Positions 53,279-62,045 are shown, counted from the first letter of the stretch. The stretch: 64,000 nt of DNA from Syntrophales bacterium (GCA_963668175.1 OY764159.1:1088001-1152000); one strand, 5' to 3'. Numbers and translations: made by a program. Notes: a model not told the origin generated them from the letters alone.

Positions 53279-55150
53279 TCATGTCTCCGGGATTTCACCG
53301 TCGGGCGGACGGTTGAAGAAGCCATGGATCGTCTCGGCGAGCTTCCGACCGATACCGGGAACTTCCTGAAGTTCTTCCACGGATGCCTCCCGGACCTTCC
53401 GGGTATTTCCGAAATATTTGAGCAACGACGTCTTCTTCCGTGTGCCTATTCCCGACATACCGTCCATGACCGAAACCAGGTCGGCCTTCTCTTTCACATT
53501 CCGGTGGTACGTGATGGCGAAGCGATGGGCCTCGTCCCTGATCCGCTGGAGCATGAAGAGGGCCGCCGGCCAACGGGAGAGGTAGACCGGGTCCTTCTTC
53601 TGCGGCAGGTAGACGCGATCCTGCCCCTTCTGCAGCGCGGCGGACCGGCCGAAAGGACCATCCGCTGTTTCGACGCCGCTTTCGTTCCTCGCCTTGGCCA
53701 GGCTGATCACATCGACGCCGTCGATGCCCAGGTCCTTGATCACCGAAAGGGCGACCGAAAGATGACCCTTTCCCCCGTCGATGACGATCAGATCGGGCAG
53801 ATTCTCCCCGGTTTCATACCGGCGTTTCAGCATCTCGTAGATCATCCCGTAATCGTCGGACCCCTCGACAGTCCTGATGCGGAACCTTCGATAACCCTGC
53901 TTCCAGGGCTGGCCGTCTTTGAAGACGACCATGGAACCCACGGCAAAGCGGCCGCCGATATTGGAAATGTCGAAACATTCGATGCGGGCCGGTAGATTCT
54001 TCAGCTTGAGTTTCTGCCGGAGGATCGCCATGGCTTCGTCACGGTCGCGGCCGGCGAGACGCTCCGTCCGGAAGGAGTCCTCGGCGTTATGCATGGCAAT
54101 GTCGAGGAGCTTCCTGGTCTGTCCCTTTTGGGGATGAACGATGGATGCGCGTTTTCCCCTTCTGTCGGACAGCCATTCCTCCATGACATCCTCGTCTTCG
54201 AGGACGAAGGGGACGACGATTTCGGCAGGGATGTAGGCGCCGCCGTCGTAGTGCCGCTTGATCGTCGCCGACAGGATTTCGGATGTTTCCGTTCCGATTT
54301 TCGCCAGGGGAAACGTCTTTTTCCCCAGCAGCTTGCCCTGACGGACATCGAGCAAACATACCTGCGTCAGGTCGCCTTCCCGATATATTCCGAATACATC
54401 CTGTTCTCTTTCGGATACGGAGGCGATTCTCTGCTTCTCGACGGTCTCCTCGATGGCGGCCATGCGGTCCCGGAGTCTGGCCGCTTCCTCGAAACGGAGA
54501 TCCGAGGAGGCTGTATGCATCCTGGCGCGAAGTTCGGAGACGAGCGTCCCGGTCCGTCCTTCGAGAAAGGCGATACTTTCCCGCGCTATTTCTCCATAGG
54601 CGGCCGCATCGACGAGGCCCACGCAGGGGGCCAGGCAGCGGCCGATCTCGTATTCGAGGCATGGCCGCCTTCTCGCCTTCAGTTCCTCGTCGCGGCAGGT
54701 TCGCAGAGGGAACAAGGGTTGAAGAAACCGCAGGGTCTCCCTGGCCGAAGAGCTTGATGGGTAAGGACCGAAGTACTTGGCCTTTCCGGGCTTCGGCCGT
54801 CTCACCAGCTGGAACCGCGGAAAGGGGTGGTCGAGGTCGATCTTCAGGTTGAAGTAGGTCTTGTCGTCCCGGAAGTAAACATTGTAGCGCGGCCGGTGTT
54901 CCTTGATAAGGTTGTTTTCGAGGATGAGGGCTTCCTTCTCCGTCGCGGTGACGATGAAGTCGATATCGGCCGTCCTGGCCACGAGAAAAGGAACCATCGG
55001 GCGGGCATCCGTCCCGCCAAAATAAGCCCGGATCCTGCTTCGCAGATCCTTGGCCTTACCGACGTAGAGTATCCGCCCGTCCTTGTCCTTCATGGCATAG
55101 ACGCCGGGCGTCCGGGGGGCGTTCGTGATCTTGTCGTTTATATTCCTCAT
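53279..55150 (-). CDS. uvrC: Excinuclease ABC subunit C
   Basis: GIY-YIG motif (PGVY...YVGKA), IECFDIS, IDGGKG, RDEAHRFA, HhH. Confidence 0.98.
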   Translation of the reverse strand: MRNINDKITNAPRTPGVYAMKDKDGRILYVGKAKDLRSRIRAYFGGTDARPMVPFLVARTADIDFIVTATEKEALILENNLIKEHRPRYNVYFRDDKTYFNLKIDLDHPFPRFQLVRRPKPGKAKYFGPYPSSSSARETLRFLQPLFPLRTCRDEELKARRRPCLEYEIGRCLAPCVGLVDAAAYGEIARESIAFLEGRTGTLVSELRARMHTASSDLRFEEAARLRDRMAAIEETVEKQRIASVSEREQDVFGIYREGDLTQVCLLDVRQGKLLGKKTFPLAKIGTETSEILSATIKRHYDGGAYIPAEIVVPFVLEDEDVMEEWLSDRRGKRASIVHPQKGQTRKLLDIAMHNAEDSFRTERLAGRDRDEAMAILRQKLKLKNLPARIECFDISNIGGRFAVGSMVVFKDGQPWKQGYRRFRIRTVEGSDDYGMIYEMLKRRYETGENLPDLIVIDGGKGHLSVALSVIKDLGIDGVDVISLAKARNESGVETADGPFGRSAALQKGQDRVYLPQKKDPVYLSRWPAALFMLQRIRDEAHRFAITYHRNVKEKADLVSVMDGMSGIGTRKKTSLLKYFGNTRKVREASVEELQEVPGIGRKLAETIHGFFNRPPDGEIPET

Positions 55151-55195
55151 GCCGATTTCCGGGGCCCATGATCGTCTTTAAGACCCGTCCTGCTC

Positions 55196-55528
55196 CTACT
55201 TCTTCTTCGAGGCCTTTTTCGCCTGCTTGGCCAGGGTTTTGAGCATTTTCTTGTCTGTTTTGTCAATGGCCGTACCGGACGGGACGGGGGAGGGAGGGGT
55301 ACCGACTTCCCCTTCGGGGCCGGTGACCTTCACATCGGCCTGGGGGATGTCGTTCGGGACAGGAGGAAGGGACGGACCGGCAGGGGACGGATCGGCCTTT
55401 TGCGCCCGCATTTTCGCCAGGACCGCCTGTGCAAGGACCTTGCCGAAATGGCCTATAAAAGCCGCCACGAGGACGATCAGAACCCATTGAATAACGGACC
55501 AGACACTGAATTCCATAACATCATGCAA
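55196..55528 (-). CDS. Small membrane protein with Pro-rich linker and Lys-rich tail
   Basis: QWVLIVLVAAFIGHFGK TM segment; lies in operon position between mobB and uvrC. Confidence 0.65.
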   Translation of the reverse strand: MHDVMEFSVWSVIQWVLIVLVAAFIGHFGKVLAQAVLAKMRAQKADPSPAGPSLPPVPNDIPQADVKVTGPEGEVGTPPSPVPSGTAIDKTDKKMLKTLAKQAKKASKKK

Positions 55529-55592
55529 AATACTTATCGGACCATGACCATATCCCTGCCGCTTTCCGGCGATGACGGCTGAGTCCGAGGTC

Positions 55593-56084
55593 TTATTTGA
55601 GAAACCGCTCCTCGATGAAATCGGCCAAACCCCTGGCGTCGTCGATGTCGAAACGCGGCACCCCGGCCTCCGGGGGATTGTCGCCGGCGATGGCGATCAG
55701 GTTGTCTTCCGCCTGACAAAGCAGATCCCGTTTCAAAACCGCCCGGAAGACCTCGATTTTGGGATGGGGGTTTTTCTTGAAACCCTCCGACAGGATCAGG
55801 TCGACGTTGCGGATATAGCGCTCCCGAAGCTCCGCGATCTCGAAGTCGGTGTCCGTGTCTTCTATGGTGGCCACCTGGTGGGGGGAAGCCACGACGGTCA
55901 GCACCGCCCCCGCTTTCTTGTGGCGCCAGCTGTCCTTGCCTTCATGGTCGATCTCGAATCCGTGGCGGTTGTGCTTGATCGTGGCGATCCGGTAGCCCCT
56001 GGCGGTCAGGTCGCGGATGAGCTTCTCGATCAGGGTGGTCTTCCCCGAGTTCGACTTGCCGACGATGGATACAATGGGAATCAT
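55593..56084 (-). CDS. mobB: Molybdopterin-guanine dinucleotide biosynthesis protein B
   Basis: GKSNSGKTT, IKH, GKDSWRH, EGFK. Confidence 0.93.
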   Translation of the reverse strand: MIPIVSIVGKSNSGKTTLIEKLIRDLTARGYRIATIKHNRHGFEIDHEGKDSWRHKKAGAVLTVVASPHQVATIEDTDTDFEIAELRERYIRNVDLILSEGFKKNPHPKIEVFRAVLKRDLLCQAEDNLIAIAGDNPPEAGVPRFDIDDARGLADFIEERFLK

Positions 56085-56094
56085 CCGTCTTTTC

Positions 56095-56397
56095 TCATCC
56101 CCGGGGAACGAAAGGTTTGAATTCGTATTCCTTGTCGCGGACGGCGAACACCATCCGTTCCTCCTCGTTGACTTTCATTCTCCCTTCGATGACGCGTTTG
56201 CAGCCGAAGTCGTAGAAGGTGATCTGGTGGGAGGGCACGCTCGCCTCGTCCAGGTCGGGGTACGACCTCTCCCGTTCATCCGCCGACAGTGCCCTGACGG
56301 TCAGCTTCTGGCATCGTTCCCGCTCCTCCGCATTGCCTAAGCGGATGATGACGACGTAGTTTCCGTGAAATTTGATCGGCATCCTGATCGTTTCCAT
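56095..56397 (-). CDS. Hypothetical protein
   Basis: GGAGG RBS before ATG 56397; operonic spacing. Confidence 0.65.
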   Translation of the reverse strand: METIRMPIKFHGNYVVIIRLGNAEERERCQKLTVRALSADERERSYPDLDEASVPSHQITFYDFGCKRVIEGRMKVNEEERMVFAVRDKEYEFKPFVPRG

Positions 56398-56456
56398 GGT
56401 TTCACCTCCGGGCATTTATGATGGGTCCAAAAGCGACAATAAACGACTTTAGCGGC

Positions 56457-57440
56457 CTATCTCAATGAATCGTCGATGATGCGGGATACGGCATCTTTGA
56501 AAGAGATCCCGGCCTCTTCGACGCACCAGGCAAAACCGCCGTCCGGCGAGAGGCAGGGGTTTGTGTTGATTTCCATGACCCAGGGCGTGCCGTTCTTGTC
56601 CACCCGGAAGTCGACGCGGGCATAACCCTTGAGGCCGAATGCCTCCCAGCACCGGTTCGTCATATCTTTCAGGCGGGAAAGAAGAGGACCGTCTTCCTCC
56701 GTGAAATCGAAACACGCGAGGATGTTCTGGAACTCGAACGATTCTTCGTCCCATTTTGCCCGGTAGGTGAGGAGCTTTGGCTTTCCTTCGGGATAGTTGT
56801 TGAAGCGGACTTCCGCCGGGGGAAGGATCTGATGGCCCCCGTCTCCGGCGAGAACGGCCAGGTTGAATTCCCGCCCTTCGATAAAAGGTTCGGCCAGACA
56901 AGGCCCGCCGAGCTTGGTCCTGAAATCGTCCAGGGCCTTGCGGAGTTGCTCGGGGCTGGAGACGTCGACAAGGGAACTCTCGTCGATTCCAATGGAGGCG
57001 TGTTCCCAGACCGATTTGACAATATAACGGCCCCCGGAAAAATCGCCGTCGGCGCCGTCGCCGTGCGACCGCCAGGGGATGGTCGGGATGCCGGCCCCTT
57101 TCAATATTTTCTTGGCGACGATTTTGTTGGATGTCATGAATATCGCCTCGGCGGTAGCGCCGGTGTAGGGTATGCCGATCGTGTCGAGGACGGAGGGCAC
57201 GACGTGAATGAGGTTGCCGCGCCCGTTGAGCGCTTCCACGAGGTTGAAGATGGCGTCGGGGCCGACGGCAGCAAGGGTTTCGGCCATTCGGGCGAGATTC
57301 ATGGACACAGGGACGGGCACGGGCTCGTGCCCGAGCTCCTTCAAGGTTTCGGAAATGATATCCACCTGGTCCAGGGTATCGAGCTCGTCTACGCTCGCCT
57401 CGTCGGGAATTTCGCCGTGCAGCACAACTATTTTCATCAA
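56457..57440 (-). CDS. D-Ala-D-Ala-ligase-like ATP-grasp protein (non-canonical), copy 2
   Basis: FNLVE, PYTG, K..S..EHASIGI, FIEGREF, YARVDFR, EINTNP. Confidence 0.88.
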   Translation of the reverse strand: MMKIVVLHGEIPDEASVDELDTLDQVDIISETLKELGHEPVPVPVSMNLARMAETLAAVGPDAIFNLVEALNGRGNLIHVVPSVLDTIGIPYTGATAEAIFMTSNKIVAKKILKGAGIPTIPWRSHGDGADGDFSGGRYIVKSVWEHASIGIDESSLVDVSSPEQLRKALDDFRTKLGGPCLAEPFIEGREFNLAVLAGDGGHQILPPAEVRFNNYPEGKPKLLTYRAKWDEESFEFQNILACFDFTEEDGPLLSRLKDMTNRCWEAFGLKGYARVDFRVDKNGTPWVMEINTNPCLSPDGGFAWCVEEAGISFKDAVSRIIDDSLR

Positions 57441-57643
57441 CAGGACTCCTCATGACGCTCTTGGATAAAGCCGACGGACCACATTCCCGCCGTTCTTACG
57501 GCGTTGTCCGTTCAGTCCGCATTCTGCTTCGCTCCCCATCTCCGGCCGCTACGGCTGCGTGACAGAATTCCGGCCAGGGGAGAAAAGCAGTTACCGTATA
57601 TTCGTTCATACTCTTTTTGCGAATTTTTTTAAAGACGGCAAAA

Positions 57644-58633
57644 TCAAATTCGCTTTTTTTCGCCGAGACGCTTGCAGGCCGATGCTAACATTCTGCCGAT
57701 GAGGTCCTGGTAGGATATGCCGGCCAGACTGCAAATAATGGGGAGATCGGAGTGTACAGGGTGCAGTCCCGCCAGGGGATTGACTTCCAGGAAGTGGAGG
57801 GCTCCATTGTCGTCGGCGCGAAGGTCGACCCGTCCGCCGTCGCGGCAACCCAAACCCCGCCAGGCCGCCAGGGCGATTTTTTTAGCGTCGTCGGCCAATG
57901 TACCGTCGAGAAGCCGGTACTCCACGCGTTCCCGGTAGTTTTCCTTGTTGGCATACGAGTAGATGTCCTTCTCGGCCTTCTCCTTGAGGAATATCTCCAG
58001 GATGCCCAGTACCTCAGCCTCTTCTCCCGTGCCGACGATGCCGACGGTGAATTCCCGGCCGGGGAGAAATGTCTCCACAAGAAGCGGCTGTTCCTGAGAG
58101 GAAAGCAAGCACCGGCATGTTTGGGAAAGTTCGGCGAACGATTCCACCCGGGAGGATGCGTCGATGCCCTTGCTGGTGCCCTCGGCAACCGGTTTGACAA
58201 ACAGGGGATAGGGCAGCCGGACGGCCTCTATGTCCTTTTCGTCTGCGACGACGGCAAAGGCGGGAGTTGCGATGCCGAGGTCGCGGATAATATGCTTGGT
58301 CATTCCCTTATGGAGCGTGACAGCGAGCACCAGGGCGTCGGAAAAGACATAGGGTATCCGGTAGGCGTCGAGGAGGGCCGGTACCTGGGCTTCCCGGCCA
58401 TAACCGTACAGGCCTTCCGCAATATTGAAGACCATATCCCAGCGATCGCCCGAGGAGAGTCGCTTCGCCAGGGCCTTGACGGAGCCTATCCGGTCGGTCT
58501 GATGCCCTGAAGCCGACAGGGCCGCGTCGATGGCTTCGATCGTGTCGGGACGGTCGAATTCGGCCGTCTCCATCTCGGTGTAGCCTTCCGAAAGGTAGTC
58601 GTTACGCAGGTCGTAAGTGATGCCGATCAGCAT
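57644..58633 (-). CDS. D-Ala-D-Ala-ligase-like ATP-grasp protein (non-canonical), copy 1
   Basis: FNIAEG, KPVAEGTSKGI, FLPGREFTV, RVDLR, EVNPLAGL. Confidence 0.88.
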   Translation of the reverse strand: MLIGITYDLRNDYLSEGYTEMETAEFDRPDTIEAIDAALSASGHQTDRIGSVKALAKRLSSGDRWDMVFNIAEGLYGYGREAQVPALLDAYRIPYVFSDALVLAVTLHKGMTKHIIRDLGIATPAFAVVADEKDIEAVRLPYPLFVKPVAEGTSKGIDASSRVESFAELSQTCRCLLSSQEQPLLVETFLPGREFTVGIVGTGEEAEVLGILEIFLKEKAEKDIYSYANKENYRERVEYRLLDGTLADDAKKIALAAWRGLGCRDGGRVDLRADDNGALHFLEVNPLAGLHPVHSDLPIICSLAGISYQDLIGRMLASACKRLGEKKRI

Positions 58634-58783
58634 CGGCTATCCTCCAGCAATCTTAGCCGTCGCCGTTTTCCGCAATTTCCCGCTTCTTCCGTGCGGGGGC
58701 GGCAGGCCGGAACGGCACGGAACCGTCCGCAGTCTTCCTCTCCGGACCGCGGCAGCGGATAATTACAGGTACGACAGGGTACG

Positions 58784-60097
58784 TCAATTGATTTCCCCGG
58801 CCGGCATAAGACAGTCGGGGTAACGGTAGGTCCGTCCCTGGTAATTCTTCAAGAGCAGATCCTGGCCATCCCTGCCCATGACGTACTCGGGCAGCAGGGG
58901 GATCTTGCCGCCCCCGCCCGGAGCGTCGATGACATAGGCTGGTACTGCGTATCCGGTTGTGTGGCCTCTCAAACCCTTGATGATTTCCAGTCCTTTCGAG
59001 ACGGGGGTCCGGAAATGAGACGACCCTGGAATCGGGTCACATTGGTAGAGATAGTACGGTCGCACTCTGATTTGCAGCAATCCGTGGAAGAGCCTCTTCA
59101 TGGTATCCAGATTGTCGTTGATGCCGGCAAGCAACACCGTCTGGCTGCCGAGGGGGATACCCGCATCGGCCAGGCGTATGCAGGCCTGCTGCATTTCGGG
59201 GGTCAGCTCTTCCGGATGGGTGACATGGAGGCTGATCCAGATAGGATGAAAACGTTTCAGAACACGGGTCAGCTCCGAAGTGATGCGGAAGGGCATGACT
59301 ACGGGCGCCTTGGTGCCGATGCGGATCAATTCCACATGGGGGATTTTCTTCAGTCTCGACAGAATCCATTCCAGTCTGCCGTCGGAAAAGGTCAGGGGGT
59401 CGCCGCCGGAAAGGAGCACGTCGCGAACGGTATGGTTGGAGGCGATATAAGAGATTGCTTCTTCCCACTGCGAGGGACCGAAAGAATTCTCGCCCGACAT
59501 GCTGACGATGCGCGAGCGGGTGCAGTAGCGGCAATAGGTGGAACAGCGGCTTGTCATCAGGAAGAGAACGCGATCGGGATAACGGTGCACGATGCAGGGA
59601 ACGGGACTGTCTTTCTCTTCGCCCAAGGGGTCGCTGGTCTCCCCTTCGCTCAGCGTATTTTCGGAAATAACCGGGACCACCGTGCGCCGCAGGGGATGGG
59701 AAACGTCGACGCGATCGATCAGGCTCGCGTAATACGGGGTGATCGTTACGGGCAGGCGACGCGTACGGTTCTGAACCATGGCGTGCCGTTCTTCCTCCGA
59801 CAGCCAAAGGATCTGTCCCAAGGTCTGCACGTCGCGGATGCGATTGCGAAGCTGCCATCGCCAATCCTGCCATTCTGCGAGGGTTACTTTGGGGAAAAAA
59901 TGACGCCGGAAATCCCGCGATTGGGGACTGTCTTTGAAACGGGGCAAGTCCCGCGCCGATCTGATCGGCACGATGGAAGGGGCACTATAACTTTTCGGTT
60001 TGTCAAAAGCGCTATCTTCTAAATTTTCAAGACCGACCATGCCGGTGATATCGCCTGGAGGTTCAACTTCCTCGTTGACGATGGTCTTGCGTTCCAT
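58784..60097 (-). CDS. KamA-family radical-SAM/PLP 2,3-aminomutase
   Basis: HRYPDRVL, CSTYCRYC, SGGDPL, YYLYQCD, DAPGGGGKIP. Confidence 0.93.
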   Translation of the reverse strand: MERKTIVNEEVEPPGDITGMVGLENLEDSAFDKPKSYSAPSIVPIRSARDLPRFKDSPQSRDFRRHFFPKVTLAEWQDWRWQLRNRIRDVQTLGQILWLSEEERHAMVQNRTRRLPVTITPYYASLIDRVDVSHPLRRTVVPVISENTLSEGETSDPLGEEKDSPVPCIVHRYPDRVLFLMTSRCSTYCRYCTRSRIVSMSGENSFGPSQWEEAISYIASNHTVRDVLLSGGDPLTFSDGRLEWILSRLKKIPHVELIRIGTKAPVVMPFRITSELTRVLKRFHPIWISLHVTHPEELTPEMQQACIRLADAGIPLGSQTVLLAGINDNLDTMKRLFHGLLQIRVRPYYLYQCDPIPGSSHFRTPVSKGLEIIKGLRGHTTGYAVPAYVIDAPGGGGKIPLLPEYVMGRDGQDLLLKNYQGRTYRYPDCLMPAGEIN

Positions 60098-60548
60098 GCA
60101 ATGACGCCTCCTTTCCCTTGAGGGGTGGTTCGCTCTTCCCGGATATTTCAGTCTTGAAGACCATCTTTCGGTGCCTCTTCGGGAACGCTTTTGTAAAAAA
60201 TCGTTTATCCTTTTTAACCTGTAATGTCAACAGCATTTCGCGTATCTTTTCATTTTTTTTGTATCCGGTTCGTCGGACTGCGGGAAGAAAAAAACGGACG
60301 GCGTTTTTTTGGCAACGTAAGGAATCTCACAGCCGGAGCGGGTTGCCTCGAATCATCCATTTATCGTTGACAGGTCTTCCCGGCTATTTTATAGAGAAAA
60401 TCATGAGGCCGCGGTTTTGCAGATGTTCCCGCCGGGGCTGCAACAGACCCGATTTCCGAGGGTCAGGCAGCGGCCGCAATGTTATCTCAGGCCGACGGAT
60501 GAGAATTGCACAAAGCAGCCGCAATTGATTGAAGGAAGGAGGAGCCGA

Positions 60549-61328
60549 ATGCCGGAGCTGCCGGAGGTAGAAACGCTGTGCCGTCAGATGTCCGCCGTCC
60601 TGGTGGGTGCGAAGGTGCGCCGTCTTGATATCCTTGATGCGAAACTGGGCCGGGGAAAGAATCTGCGCGGCAGGCAAGTCATGGCAGTCTCGCGCGAAGG
60701 CAAATGGGTTGTTATCAAACTGGACAAGGATTTGACGATGCGCGTTCATCTGCGGATGACCGGCCGTCTTCTCTGGAGAGAAAGCGGCAGGGATATCCTG
60801 CCGCATACGCGCTTCGCCATCTTCTTCGACCGGGGCAGACTGGATCTCGTCGACCCACGCCGTTTCGCGACGCTCTCGTTCGACGAGCCGCCGGCGGAAC
60901 CGGTTCCGGTAAAAAATCCCCTGGAGTGTTTCGATACGAAGATTCTGATCGAAAGAGCGGCGAAAAGGAGGGTGACGGTGAAATCCTTTCTCCTCGATCA
61001 AAAGGTGATTGCCGGCATCGGCAATATCTATGCATGCGAGATCCTGCATGCGGCTTTCGTCGATCCGCGTCGCAGCGCCGGCAGCCTCTCCCGCGCGGAA
61101 TGGCGCAAAGTCGCCGCTGCGGCCGTACGTATCCTGCAGAAGGCCGTCGCCTGCCGGGGGACATCCGTCTCGGATTGGCGGGACCTGTTCGGCTGCTTGG
61201 CCGAGTACCAGAACCATCTGTCCGTTTACGCCCGTGCCGGCGAAGCCTGTCGTCAGTGCGGTGGGACGCTTGTCCGGGAGTCGATCGGCGGCAGGGGAAC
61301 CTTTTTCTGCCCGGCCTGCCAGCGCTGA
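60549..61328 (+). CDS. mutM: Formamidopyrimidine-DNA glycosylase
   Basis: MPELPEVE, HLRMTG, GIGNIYA, C-terminal zinc finger. Confidence 0.96.
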   Translation: MPELPEVETLCRQMSAVLVGAKVRRLDILDAKLGRGKNLRGRQVMAVSREGKWVVIKLDKDLTMRVHLRMTGRLLWRESGRDILPHTRFAIFFDRGRLDLVDPRRFATLSFDEPPAEPVPVKNPLECFDTKILIERAAKRRVTVKSFLLDQKVIAGIGNIYACEILHAAFVDPRRSAGSLSRAEWRKVAAAAVRILQKAVACRGTSVSDWRDLFGCLAEYQNHLSVYARAGEACRQCGGTLVRESIGGRGTFFCPACQR

Positions 61329-61475
61329 GGTGGCATGCCCCCCTGGAAACGAGCCGATTCAAGGGTTTCATGACCACGGTCTCCCGTCAAAACACGGACA
61401 AAAACCCTTTTGCAATCGCCCGTGAGTTGTGTTTAGATGACCCTCTGAGGAGACGACAGGGAAGGAGGCTTCGCA

Positions 61476-62045
61476 ATGATCGGCGAACTGATACGAAGAA
61501 ACAGGAGCTACCGGCGGTTTGACGAGAGCCATGCCATCGGCCGCGATACCCTGGAAGAGCTTGTCGAGCTGGCGCGGCTTTCCGCCTCGGCGGCCAACAA
61601 GCAGCCCTTGAAGTATATTCTTTCGTGTGATCCGGTCCGCAATGCCGCTGTCTTTGAAACGCTGGCCTGGGCCGCGTATCTGAAGGATTGGCCCGGGCCC
61701 GGAGAAGGACAGAGACCGACGGGCTATATCGTCGTCCTGCTCGATACGGAAATTGCCAACTCTCCGCACTGCGACCACGGTATTGTCTCGCAGAGCATGC
61801 TCCTCGGGGCCGTCGAAAAAGGCCTGGGCGGCTGCATCATCGCCTCGGTGAAGAAAGAATCCCTGCGCCGGGCCCTTTCCATTCCCGAGCGGTACGAGAT
61901 TCTTCTGGTCCTGGCGCTGGGAAAGCCTGTCGAGAAGGTCGTCATCGAGGAAGTCGGGGCGGACGGCGACGTGAAATACTGGCATGCGGCCGACGGCTCC
62001 CATCATGTCCCCAAACGGAGGCTCTCCGATATCATCATCGGATGA
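61476..62045 (+). CDS. Nitroreductase family protein
   Basis: RSYRRF, SAANKQP, GLGGC. Confidence 0.9.
   Translation: MIGELIRRNRSYRRFDESHAIGRDTLEELVELARLSASAANKQPLKYILSCDPVRNAAVFETLAWAAYLKDWPGPGEGQRPTGYIVVLLDTEIANSPHCDHGIVSQSMLLGAVEKGLGGCIIASVKKESLRRALSIPERYEILLVLALGKPVEKVVIEEVGADGDVKYWHAADGSHHVPKRRLSDIIIG

Follow-up and report, generated by a model that had tools for sequence, protein, structure and literature searches.

Three consecutive minus-strand genes in the genome of a Syntrophales bacterium encode a KamA-family radical S-adenosylmethionine (SAM)/pyridoxal phosphate (PLP) 2,3-aminomutase of the lysine type (hereafter KamA) and two ATP-grasp ligases, AG1 and AG2. They lie within a stretch of 64,000 nt (GCA_963668175.1 OY764159.1:1088001-1152000), which was analyzed in full and is referred to as the window, and their open reading frames (ORFs) were found at the coordinates given by an initial annotation made from the sequence alone (Table 1). 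The annotation had proposed that a beta-amino acid is ligated here into a small peptide. The recurrence of the KamA-AG1-AG2 arrangement (the cassette) in other genomes, seen both as co-conservation and as gene fusions, is far beyond chance. The start codon of AG2 is TTG, with an ATG one codon later, at 57437. A site scan detected no terminator-like site in either spacer of the cassette. High G+C content probably accounts for the two frames antisense to KamA and AG1, which would then be artefacts.

Table 1. Features of the KamA-AG1-AG2 locus and of related loci in the same genome; positions without a prefix are those of the window.
Feature	Position	Strand	Length	Family match or signal
KamA-family radical SAM/PLP 2,3-aminomutase, lysine type	58784-60097	-	437 aa	Pfam Radical_SAM + LAM_C
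ATP-grasp ligase 1 (AG1)	57644-58633	-	329 aa	Dala_Dala_lig_C, 4e-28
ATP-grasp ligase 2 (AG2)	56457-57440	-	327 aa	Dala_Dala_lig_C, 1e-20
KamA/fpg upstream region	60098-60548	-	~450 nt	TTGACA-17-TAAACG + Shine-Dalgarno
ORF overlapping AG2 in another frame	56449-57453		334 aa	no Pfam family match
ORF antisense to KamA	58961-60022	+	353 aa	
ORF antisense to AG1	57752-58510	+	252 aa	
orf106, between AG2 and mobB	56095-56415	-	106 aa	no Pfam family at E<=10
fpg ORF as listed	60417-61328	+		
GNAT orthologue in trans	C1:268168-268674			
AIG2-like gene	L083:6812-7300	+		
EpmA and adjacent KamA paralogue	C1:457712-460345 (L084:6662-9345)			
Third KamA-like radical SAM frame	C1:633930-634853 (L085:5253-7151)			

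Membership of the first protein in the KamA family is clear from its score of 344.7 bits against TIGR00238 (cut-off 199.2). Its best specific NCBIfam model is the AblA equivalog TIGR03820, at 486.7 bits, which is under the cut-off of 525.4 and covers model positions 3-362 of 417 only. The scores against the models for glutamate 2,3-aminomutase (TIGR04368; 418.8 bits, cut-off 650), arginine 2,3-aminomutase (TIGR04468; 389.8 bits, cut-off 600) and EpmB (TIGR03821; 254.8 bits, cut-off 369.3) are also under their cut-offs. Among solved structures the sole match was lysine 2,3-aminomutase 2A5H (429 bits, chain residues 5-366 of 416). The protein is extended by about 65 aa at the N-terminus and short at the C-terminus, where it ends 39 residues past the PLP lysine. 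All of the motifs pointed out in the initial annotation are present, namely CxxxCxxC (as CSTYCRYC), YQCD and IDAPGGGGK with its PLP lysine, and CxxxCxxC, YQCD and DAPGGGGK align residue for residue with 2A5H. The corresponding residues C185, C189, C192, D354, D391 and K398 do not vary among the cassette orthologues (71 of 71). The aspartates of YQCD and (I/V)DAPG are Asp293 and Asp330 in lysine 2,3-aminomutase, which we take to be the residues that bind the epsilon-amine, and their invariance across all 71 proteins fits the cationic substrate (Lys or Arg) that had been expected.

The two ligases are 27% identical to each other, and in public annotations the ligases of such cassettes are named D-alanine--D-alanine ligase or ATP-grasp protein. 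Their overall structure is that of Ddl. The AlphaFold models of AG1 and AG2 have pLDDT values of 91.4 and 91.5, and the best structural matches of both (Foldseek) are all Ddl, with TM-scores of 0.76-0.83 over the whole length; the top match in each case is DdlA 8evx_B (AG1, E 4e-24, TM 0.76/0.81; AG2, E 2.5e-24). Likewise, family profiles of AG1 and AG2 match Ddl best (E ~1e-30), followed by the L-amino-acid ligase 3VOT, with the matches to Ddl starting only at about position 65-82. The positions for ATP, Mg and catalysis (Lys, Glu, Arg-x-Asp, Glu-x-Asn) show little or no variation among 49 AG1 and 37 AG2 sequences, and the counterparts of K144, E180, K215, R255, D257, E270 and N272 are invariant in all 49 AG1 sequences. 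Since these residues are retained, both ligases are probably active.

The substrate site appears to be a different matter. When AG2 is compared with E. coli DdlB (1IOV), R255, D257, E270 and N272 are retained, while H63 is replaced by N, E68 by L, S150 by A, Y216 by W and G276 by C; the replaced positions, including the Ser150/Tyr216 pair, are presumably residues of the D-Ala site. A motif search found neither GGxSxE nor HGxxGED in AG1 or AG2, as had been noted, while the canonical Ddl of the same genome (at about C1:4.195 Mb) has both, in the form of GGVSSE and HGKYGEDG. Against the Ddl model PRK01372 (cut-off 243), AG1 scores 151.6 bits and AG2 114.2 bits, and both fall even further under the cut-offs of the remaining NCBIfam Ddl and Van models. 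AG1 and AG2 are thus predicted to be members of the ATP-grasp superfamily with a Ddl fold and a non-Ddl substrate site. The low scores, the missing D-Ala-site motifs and the canonical Ddl elsewhere in the genome bear out the earlier view that they are unlikely to make D-Ala-D-Ala, and the label of D-alanine--D-alanine ligase given in bulk to cassette ligases is almost certainly wrong.

A scan of a genome collection with AG1 gave 138 relatives, and 80 loci were retained for counts. By their record titles, these belong to Thermodesulfobacteriota/Deltaproteobacteria, Bacteroidota, Planctomycetota and Acidobacteriota, with a few from Pseudomonadota. KamA lies directly upstream of AG1 in 70 of the 80 loci, and AG2 follows immediately downstream in 76, the four exceptions having less than 1 kb of sequence remaining. 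The ten loci without an adjacent KamA comprise two contig ends, one in which a GNAT-deacetylase gene intervenes, and seven with no KamA in the fetched DNA. The three genes that had been proposed to belong together are therefore co-conserved, and the neighbourhood search for an accompanying acetyltransferase was also productive: a GNAT protein of about 165 aa is encoded in 62/80 loci (8 of the 18 without it have no room left), and KamA, AG1, AG2 and GNAT are all present in 56. Less frequent companions are an HDAC-type deacetylase (10/80 loci, mainly as a 593 aa GNAT-deacetylase fusion), an MFS transporter (5/80), an M20 dipeptidase-like hydrolase located after the cassette (4/80) and a small DMT_6 membrane protein (3/80).

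Fusions provide a second line of evidence. KamA and AG1 form a single ORF, read through the junction, at two loci (L017, an isolate genome, 875 aa; L024, 834 aa), and these ORFs hold the Radical_SAM, LAM_C and Dala_Dala_lig_C domains. Among 76 long relatives of AG2 there are 66 AG1-AG2 fusions (two of them with weak or partial matches), nine AG2-GNAT fusions and one protein that is neither. Each neighbouring pair is thus found fused, always in gene order, pointing to a single functional unit in which AG1 and AG2 are in physical contact. A 642 aa ORF at another locus (L092) was rejected as a new type of fusion; it is an over-extended frame in which the AG2 part begins at residue 306.

No GNAT gene is found within the window. 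The complete genome (4.57 Mb) has an orthologue in trans, about 0.88 Mb from the cassette, that is 49% identical to a cassette-linked GNAT (that of L014). A survey of 40 relatives gave 30 with AG1 and 29 with GNAT; both were present in 29, AG1 only in one (a genome 96% complete), GNAT only in none, and neither in ten. Of the 29, 15 have the two genes no more than about 3 kb apart and 14 have them unlinked, the latter including all eight genomes of the window's own family. Also among the unlinked is one related family in which the cassette is split into [KamA-AG1] and [AG2-GNAT] (L092 (G037:C35), L102/L103). In 300 genomes of the phylum, AG1 and GNAT occur together in 66, AG1 only in 7, GNAT only in 23 and neither in 204. 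The GNAT family matches a solved orphan structure, 2R7H (E 6e-40), which is named only as a "putative D-alanine N-acetyltransferase"; against family models, the cassette GNAT shows only weak RimI-type matches and no match to the AblB model. The trans GNAT gene is separated from glyQS by an AIG2-like (gamma-glutamylcyclotransferase-type) gene. An AI-2E transporter gene on its other side, a neighbour in three or more of the family's genomes, was not taken as a member of the pathway, being convergent and kept beside GNAT only within the family.

Together, KamA, AG1, AG2 and GNAT would make up a four-enzyme route to a small acetylated beta-lysine compound, a reading to which we give a probability of about 70%. 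It agrees with the initial proposal of a beta-amino acid ligated into a small peptide, which came through the checks on co-conservation, on resemblance to true Ddl and on prior publication. What the two ligases act on, how the steps are ordered, where acetylation takes place and what the compound does in the cell are inferred as follows. KamA, by strong homology, would convert L-lysine to beta-lysine via radical SAM/PLP chemistry. AG1 and AG2, probably placed side by side as a pseudo-symmetric pair, would each form one amide bond via an acyl-phosphate intermediate, with beta-lysine as one of the building blocks, and GNAT may then acetylate a leftover free amine. The expected product is a small N-acetylated di- or tri-amide of beta-lysine. 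At the loci that have them, HDAC-type or M20-type hydrolases could take the acetyl group off again or serve to recycle the product. The favoured role of the product is that of a cytoplasmic compatible solute or stress protectant, as N-epsilon-acetyl-beta-lysine and the dipeptide N-acetylglutaminylglutamine amide (NAGGN) would suggest by analogy.

Several points weigh against this pathway. The genes of the cassette are loosely packed (the spacers measure 150 and 204 nt), and it is unproven that the three genes of the window are co-transcribed. At seven of the 80 loci, the DNA fetched contains both ligases but no KamA, which may mean that beta-lysine is dispensable or that those genomes encode KamA at another place. 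A relative of GNAT is present in 23 of the 227 genomes of the phylum that are without a close AG1. Because related genomes are not independent of each other, the co-occurrence counts overstate the support and are descriptive only. Lastly, the osmolyte role is drawn from analogy only, and many of the carriers come from freshwater or soil metagenomes.

A bolder version of the same pathway is possible, if doubtful. The twin ligases may be an obligate heterodimer that arose from the Ddl homodimer and builds a beta-lysine-centred pseudo-tripeptide, an abundant cytoplasmic metabolite of many anaerobes, with its charge switched by the acetyltransferase on one side and deacetylases of HDAC or M20 type on the other; the acetylated compound would be neutral and the deacetylated one cationic. 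The 66 natural AG1-AG2 fusion proteins lend indirect support to the idea of a heterodimer.

A product that is secreted or bound to the envelope, such as an antimetabolite or a cell-surface unit, appears unlikely. The acetyl group would then serve for self-protection or as a removable protecting group, and there is a parallel in streptothricin producers, which resist their own product by acetylating a beta-lysine amine. The MFS transporters, the DMT_6 membrane proteins and the hydrolases of HDAC or M20 type (14 loci) would suit such a product, but the majority of loci are without a transporter, and the cassette sits amid housekeeping genes (fpg, uvrC and mobB) with a synteny that is stable within the order. 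Its presence in 30 of the 40 relatives is also unlike the sporadic distribution of an antibiotic cluster.

Quite unlikely is an iterative action of AG1 and AG2 that would yield a polymer or oligomer of beta-lysine, whether oligo-beta-lysine or a storage polymer resembling cyanophycin, with a backbone and side branches. Two distinct ATP-grasp activities in one complex do recall cyanophycin synthetase, four loci have the M20 dipeptidase-like gene after the cassette, and the AG1 profile weakly matches the ATP-grasp part of cyanophycin synthase (E 6e-5); however, that match is confined to some 100 residues of the common ATP-grasp core, and the match to Ddl is far stronger (E 1e-30). Across the 80 loci, neither a primer-binding or Mur-ligase-type domain nor a dedicated depolymerase is conserved. 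A capping GNAT is also better suited to a defined small molecule, as in the acetylated di- or tri-amide favoured here.

Other uses of beta-lysine were searched for in the complete genome. EpmA scores 322.1 bits, over its cut-off of 286.9, and its gene lies 0.7 kb from that of a KamA paralogue of 364 aa (245.3 bits against the EpmB model, under the cut-off of 369.3). The two are the predicted pair for beta-lysylation of EF-P and are located about 690 kb from the cassette, in keeping with the earlier statement that epmA is not in the window. That statement had extended to ablB, and here the complete genome has no match to AblB (TIGR03827), in a search that matched 6 of 14 control genomes, 2 of them over the cut-off. 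KamD of beta-lysine 5,6-aminomutase (PF09043) had no match in the genome either, and matched 0/14 of the control genomes. Between the genes for the glycine-cleavage P-protein and lipoyl synthase there is another KamA-like radical SAM frame, the third, which shares 32% identity with the KamA of the window; the ORF of 632 aa there is probably over-extended. That beta-lysine, or a peptide of it, is put on a protein by the cassette as a post-translational modification is very unlikely: EF-P beta-lysylation is a known use of a KamA paralogue, and some ATP-grasp enzymes, such as RimK, do act on proteins, but the genome is already equipped with EpmA next to a KamA paralogue of its own, AG1 and AG2 are nearest to Ddl, which joins small molecules, and no candidate target gene is conserved beside the cassette in the 80 loci.

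Upstream of KamA is the divergent fpg gene. The fpg ORF as listed begins at a TTG, and its Pfam match starts only at residue 45, so the real start is probably at about 60549 and the intergenic region ahead of KamA about 450 nt long. A TTGACA-17bp-TAAACG element had been pointed out in this region. Its letters do stand at 60230-60202, but its status as a promoter is unproven, as the second hexamer agrees with TATAAT at 3 of 6 positions and a consensus promoter scan made no call. The Shine-Dalgarno sequence AAGGAGG is found 9 nt ahead of the KamA ATG. No Rfam match was obtained at E<=1 across 55000-61500, and at the DNA level the 450 nt leader of KamA resembled none of the upstream regions from 70 related loci. 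Sigma-54-type response regulator genes flank 11 of the 80 related loci; upstream of KamA there is no sigma-54-type box at <=2 mismatches, and the total of such boxes in the window is 36, compared with a shuffled mean of 47.8.

Downstream of AG2 are orf106, mobB and uvrC. The likely start of orf106 is the ATG at 56397, behind GGAGGTG. The protein is 77% identical to its counterpart in the nearest relative, where it holds the same position. A role as a substitute for GNAT was considered and rejected, since orf106 is encoded by 20 of the 41 related genomes, including three that lack AG1, and in the sister genus is located elsewhere in the genome. It is a conserved small protein outside the pathway. 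Around related cassettes, a diadenylate cyclase (DAC) gene with a YbbR domain is found nearby at four loci (L038, L050, L052 and L062), and TRAP transporter genes (DctQ/DctM) lie upstream at L017, L024 and one of L025/L026. These neighbours could hint at a link to osmotic homeostasis, or reflect mere synteny.

The pathway, traced by AG1, is found in 74 of 301 sampled genomes of the phylum, roughly a quarter, and also in several other phyla. A search of the full-text literature, which largely leaves subscription journals uncovered, found no paper on a gene set of KamA and ATP-grasp ligases, consistent with the assumption made at the outset that the product of the cluster is unpublished. Identification of the compound would extend the biochemistry of anaerobes by a new beta-amino-acid metabolite, correct thousands of Ddl annotations, reveal the re-use of the Ddl scaffold for other amide bonds, and assign a function to the orphan structure 2R7H.

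Parts of the proposed route can be recognized in several known systems. In the EpmB/EpmA system, a KamA-family aminomutase also makes beta-lysine, which is ligated through its carboxyl group, but the ligase is a paralogue of lysyl-tRNA synthetase and the acceptor is a protein. The PylB/PylC system (PMC8225853) begins with a radical SAM rearrangement of lysine, after which an ATP-dependent ligase joins the product to a second amine by an amide bond, a precedent for the chemistry proposed for the cassette. PylB, however, is not a KamA-type PLP aminomutase, and the cassette lacks PylD and has two ligases and a GNAT; a PylC chain was not among the matches listed at E<=1 (the best 60 of 76 for AG1 and the best 60 of 66 for AG2). 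The osmolyte NAGGN, made by Ngg/AsnO, is described in PMC8070244 as formed by an acetyltransferase and peptide-bond formation, with a peptidase gene in the operon. It too is a non-ribosomal, acetylated, small peptide solute, a likeness of function only; the building blocks of NAGGN are glutamines and there is no aminomutase. With Ddl and VanA, the ligases share the three-domain fold (TM 0.76-0.83) and the same residues for ATP, Mg and catalysis, but AG1 and AG2 are without GGxSxE and HGxxGED and score well under the curated cut-offs. AblA and AblB make the osmolyte N-epsilon-acetyl-beta-lysine in methanogens and some bacteria, according to PMC11201294. Here the likeness would extend to the whole outline, with a first enzyme from one and the same family of lysine 2,3-aminomutases, acetylation by a GNAT as the last step, and a small molecule derived from beta-lysine as the product. 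The cassette differs in that its KamA is under the cut-off for AblA and its GNAT (about 165 aa) gives no match to the AblB model, and in the two ATP-grasp ligases that it places between the mutase and the GNAT.

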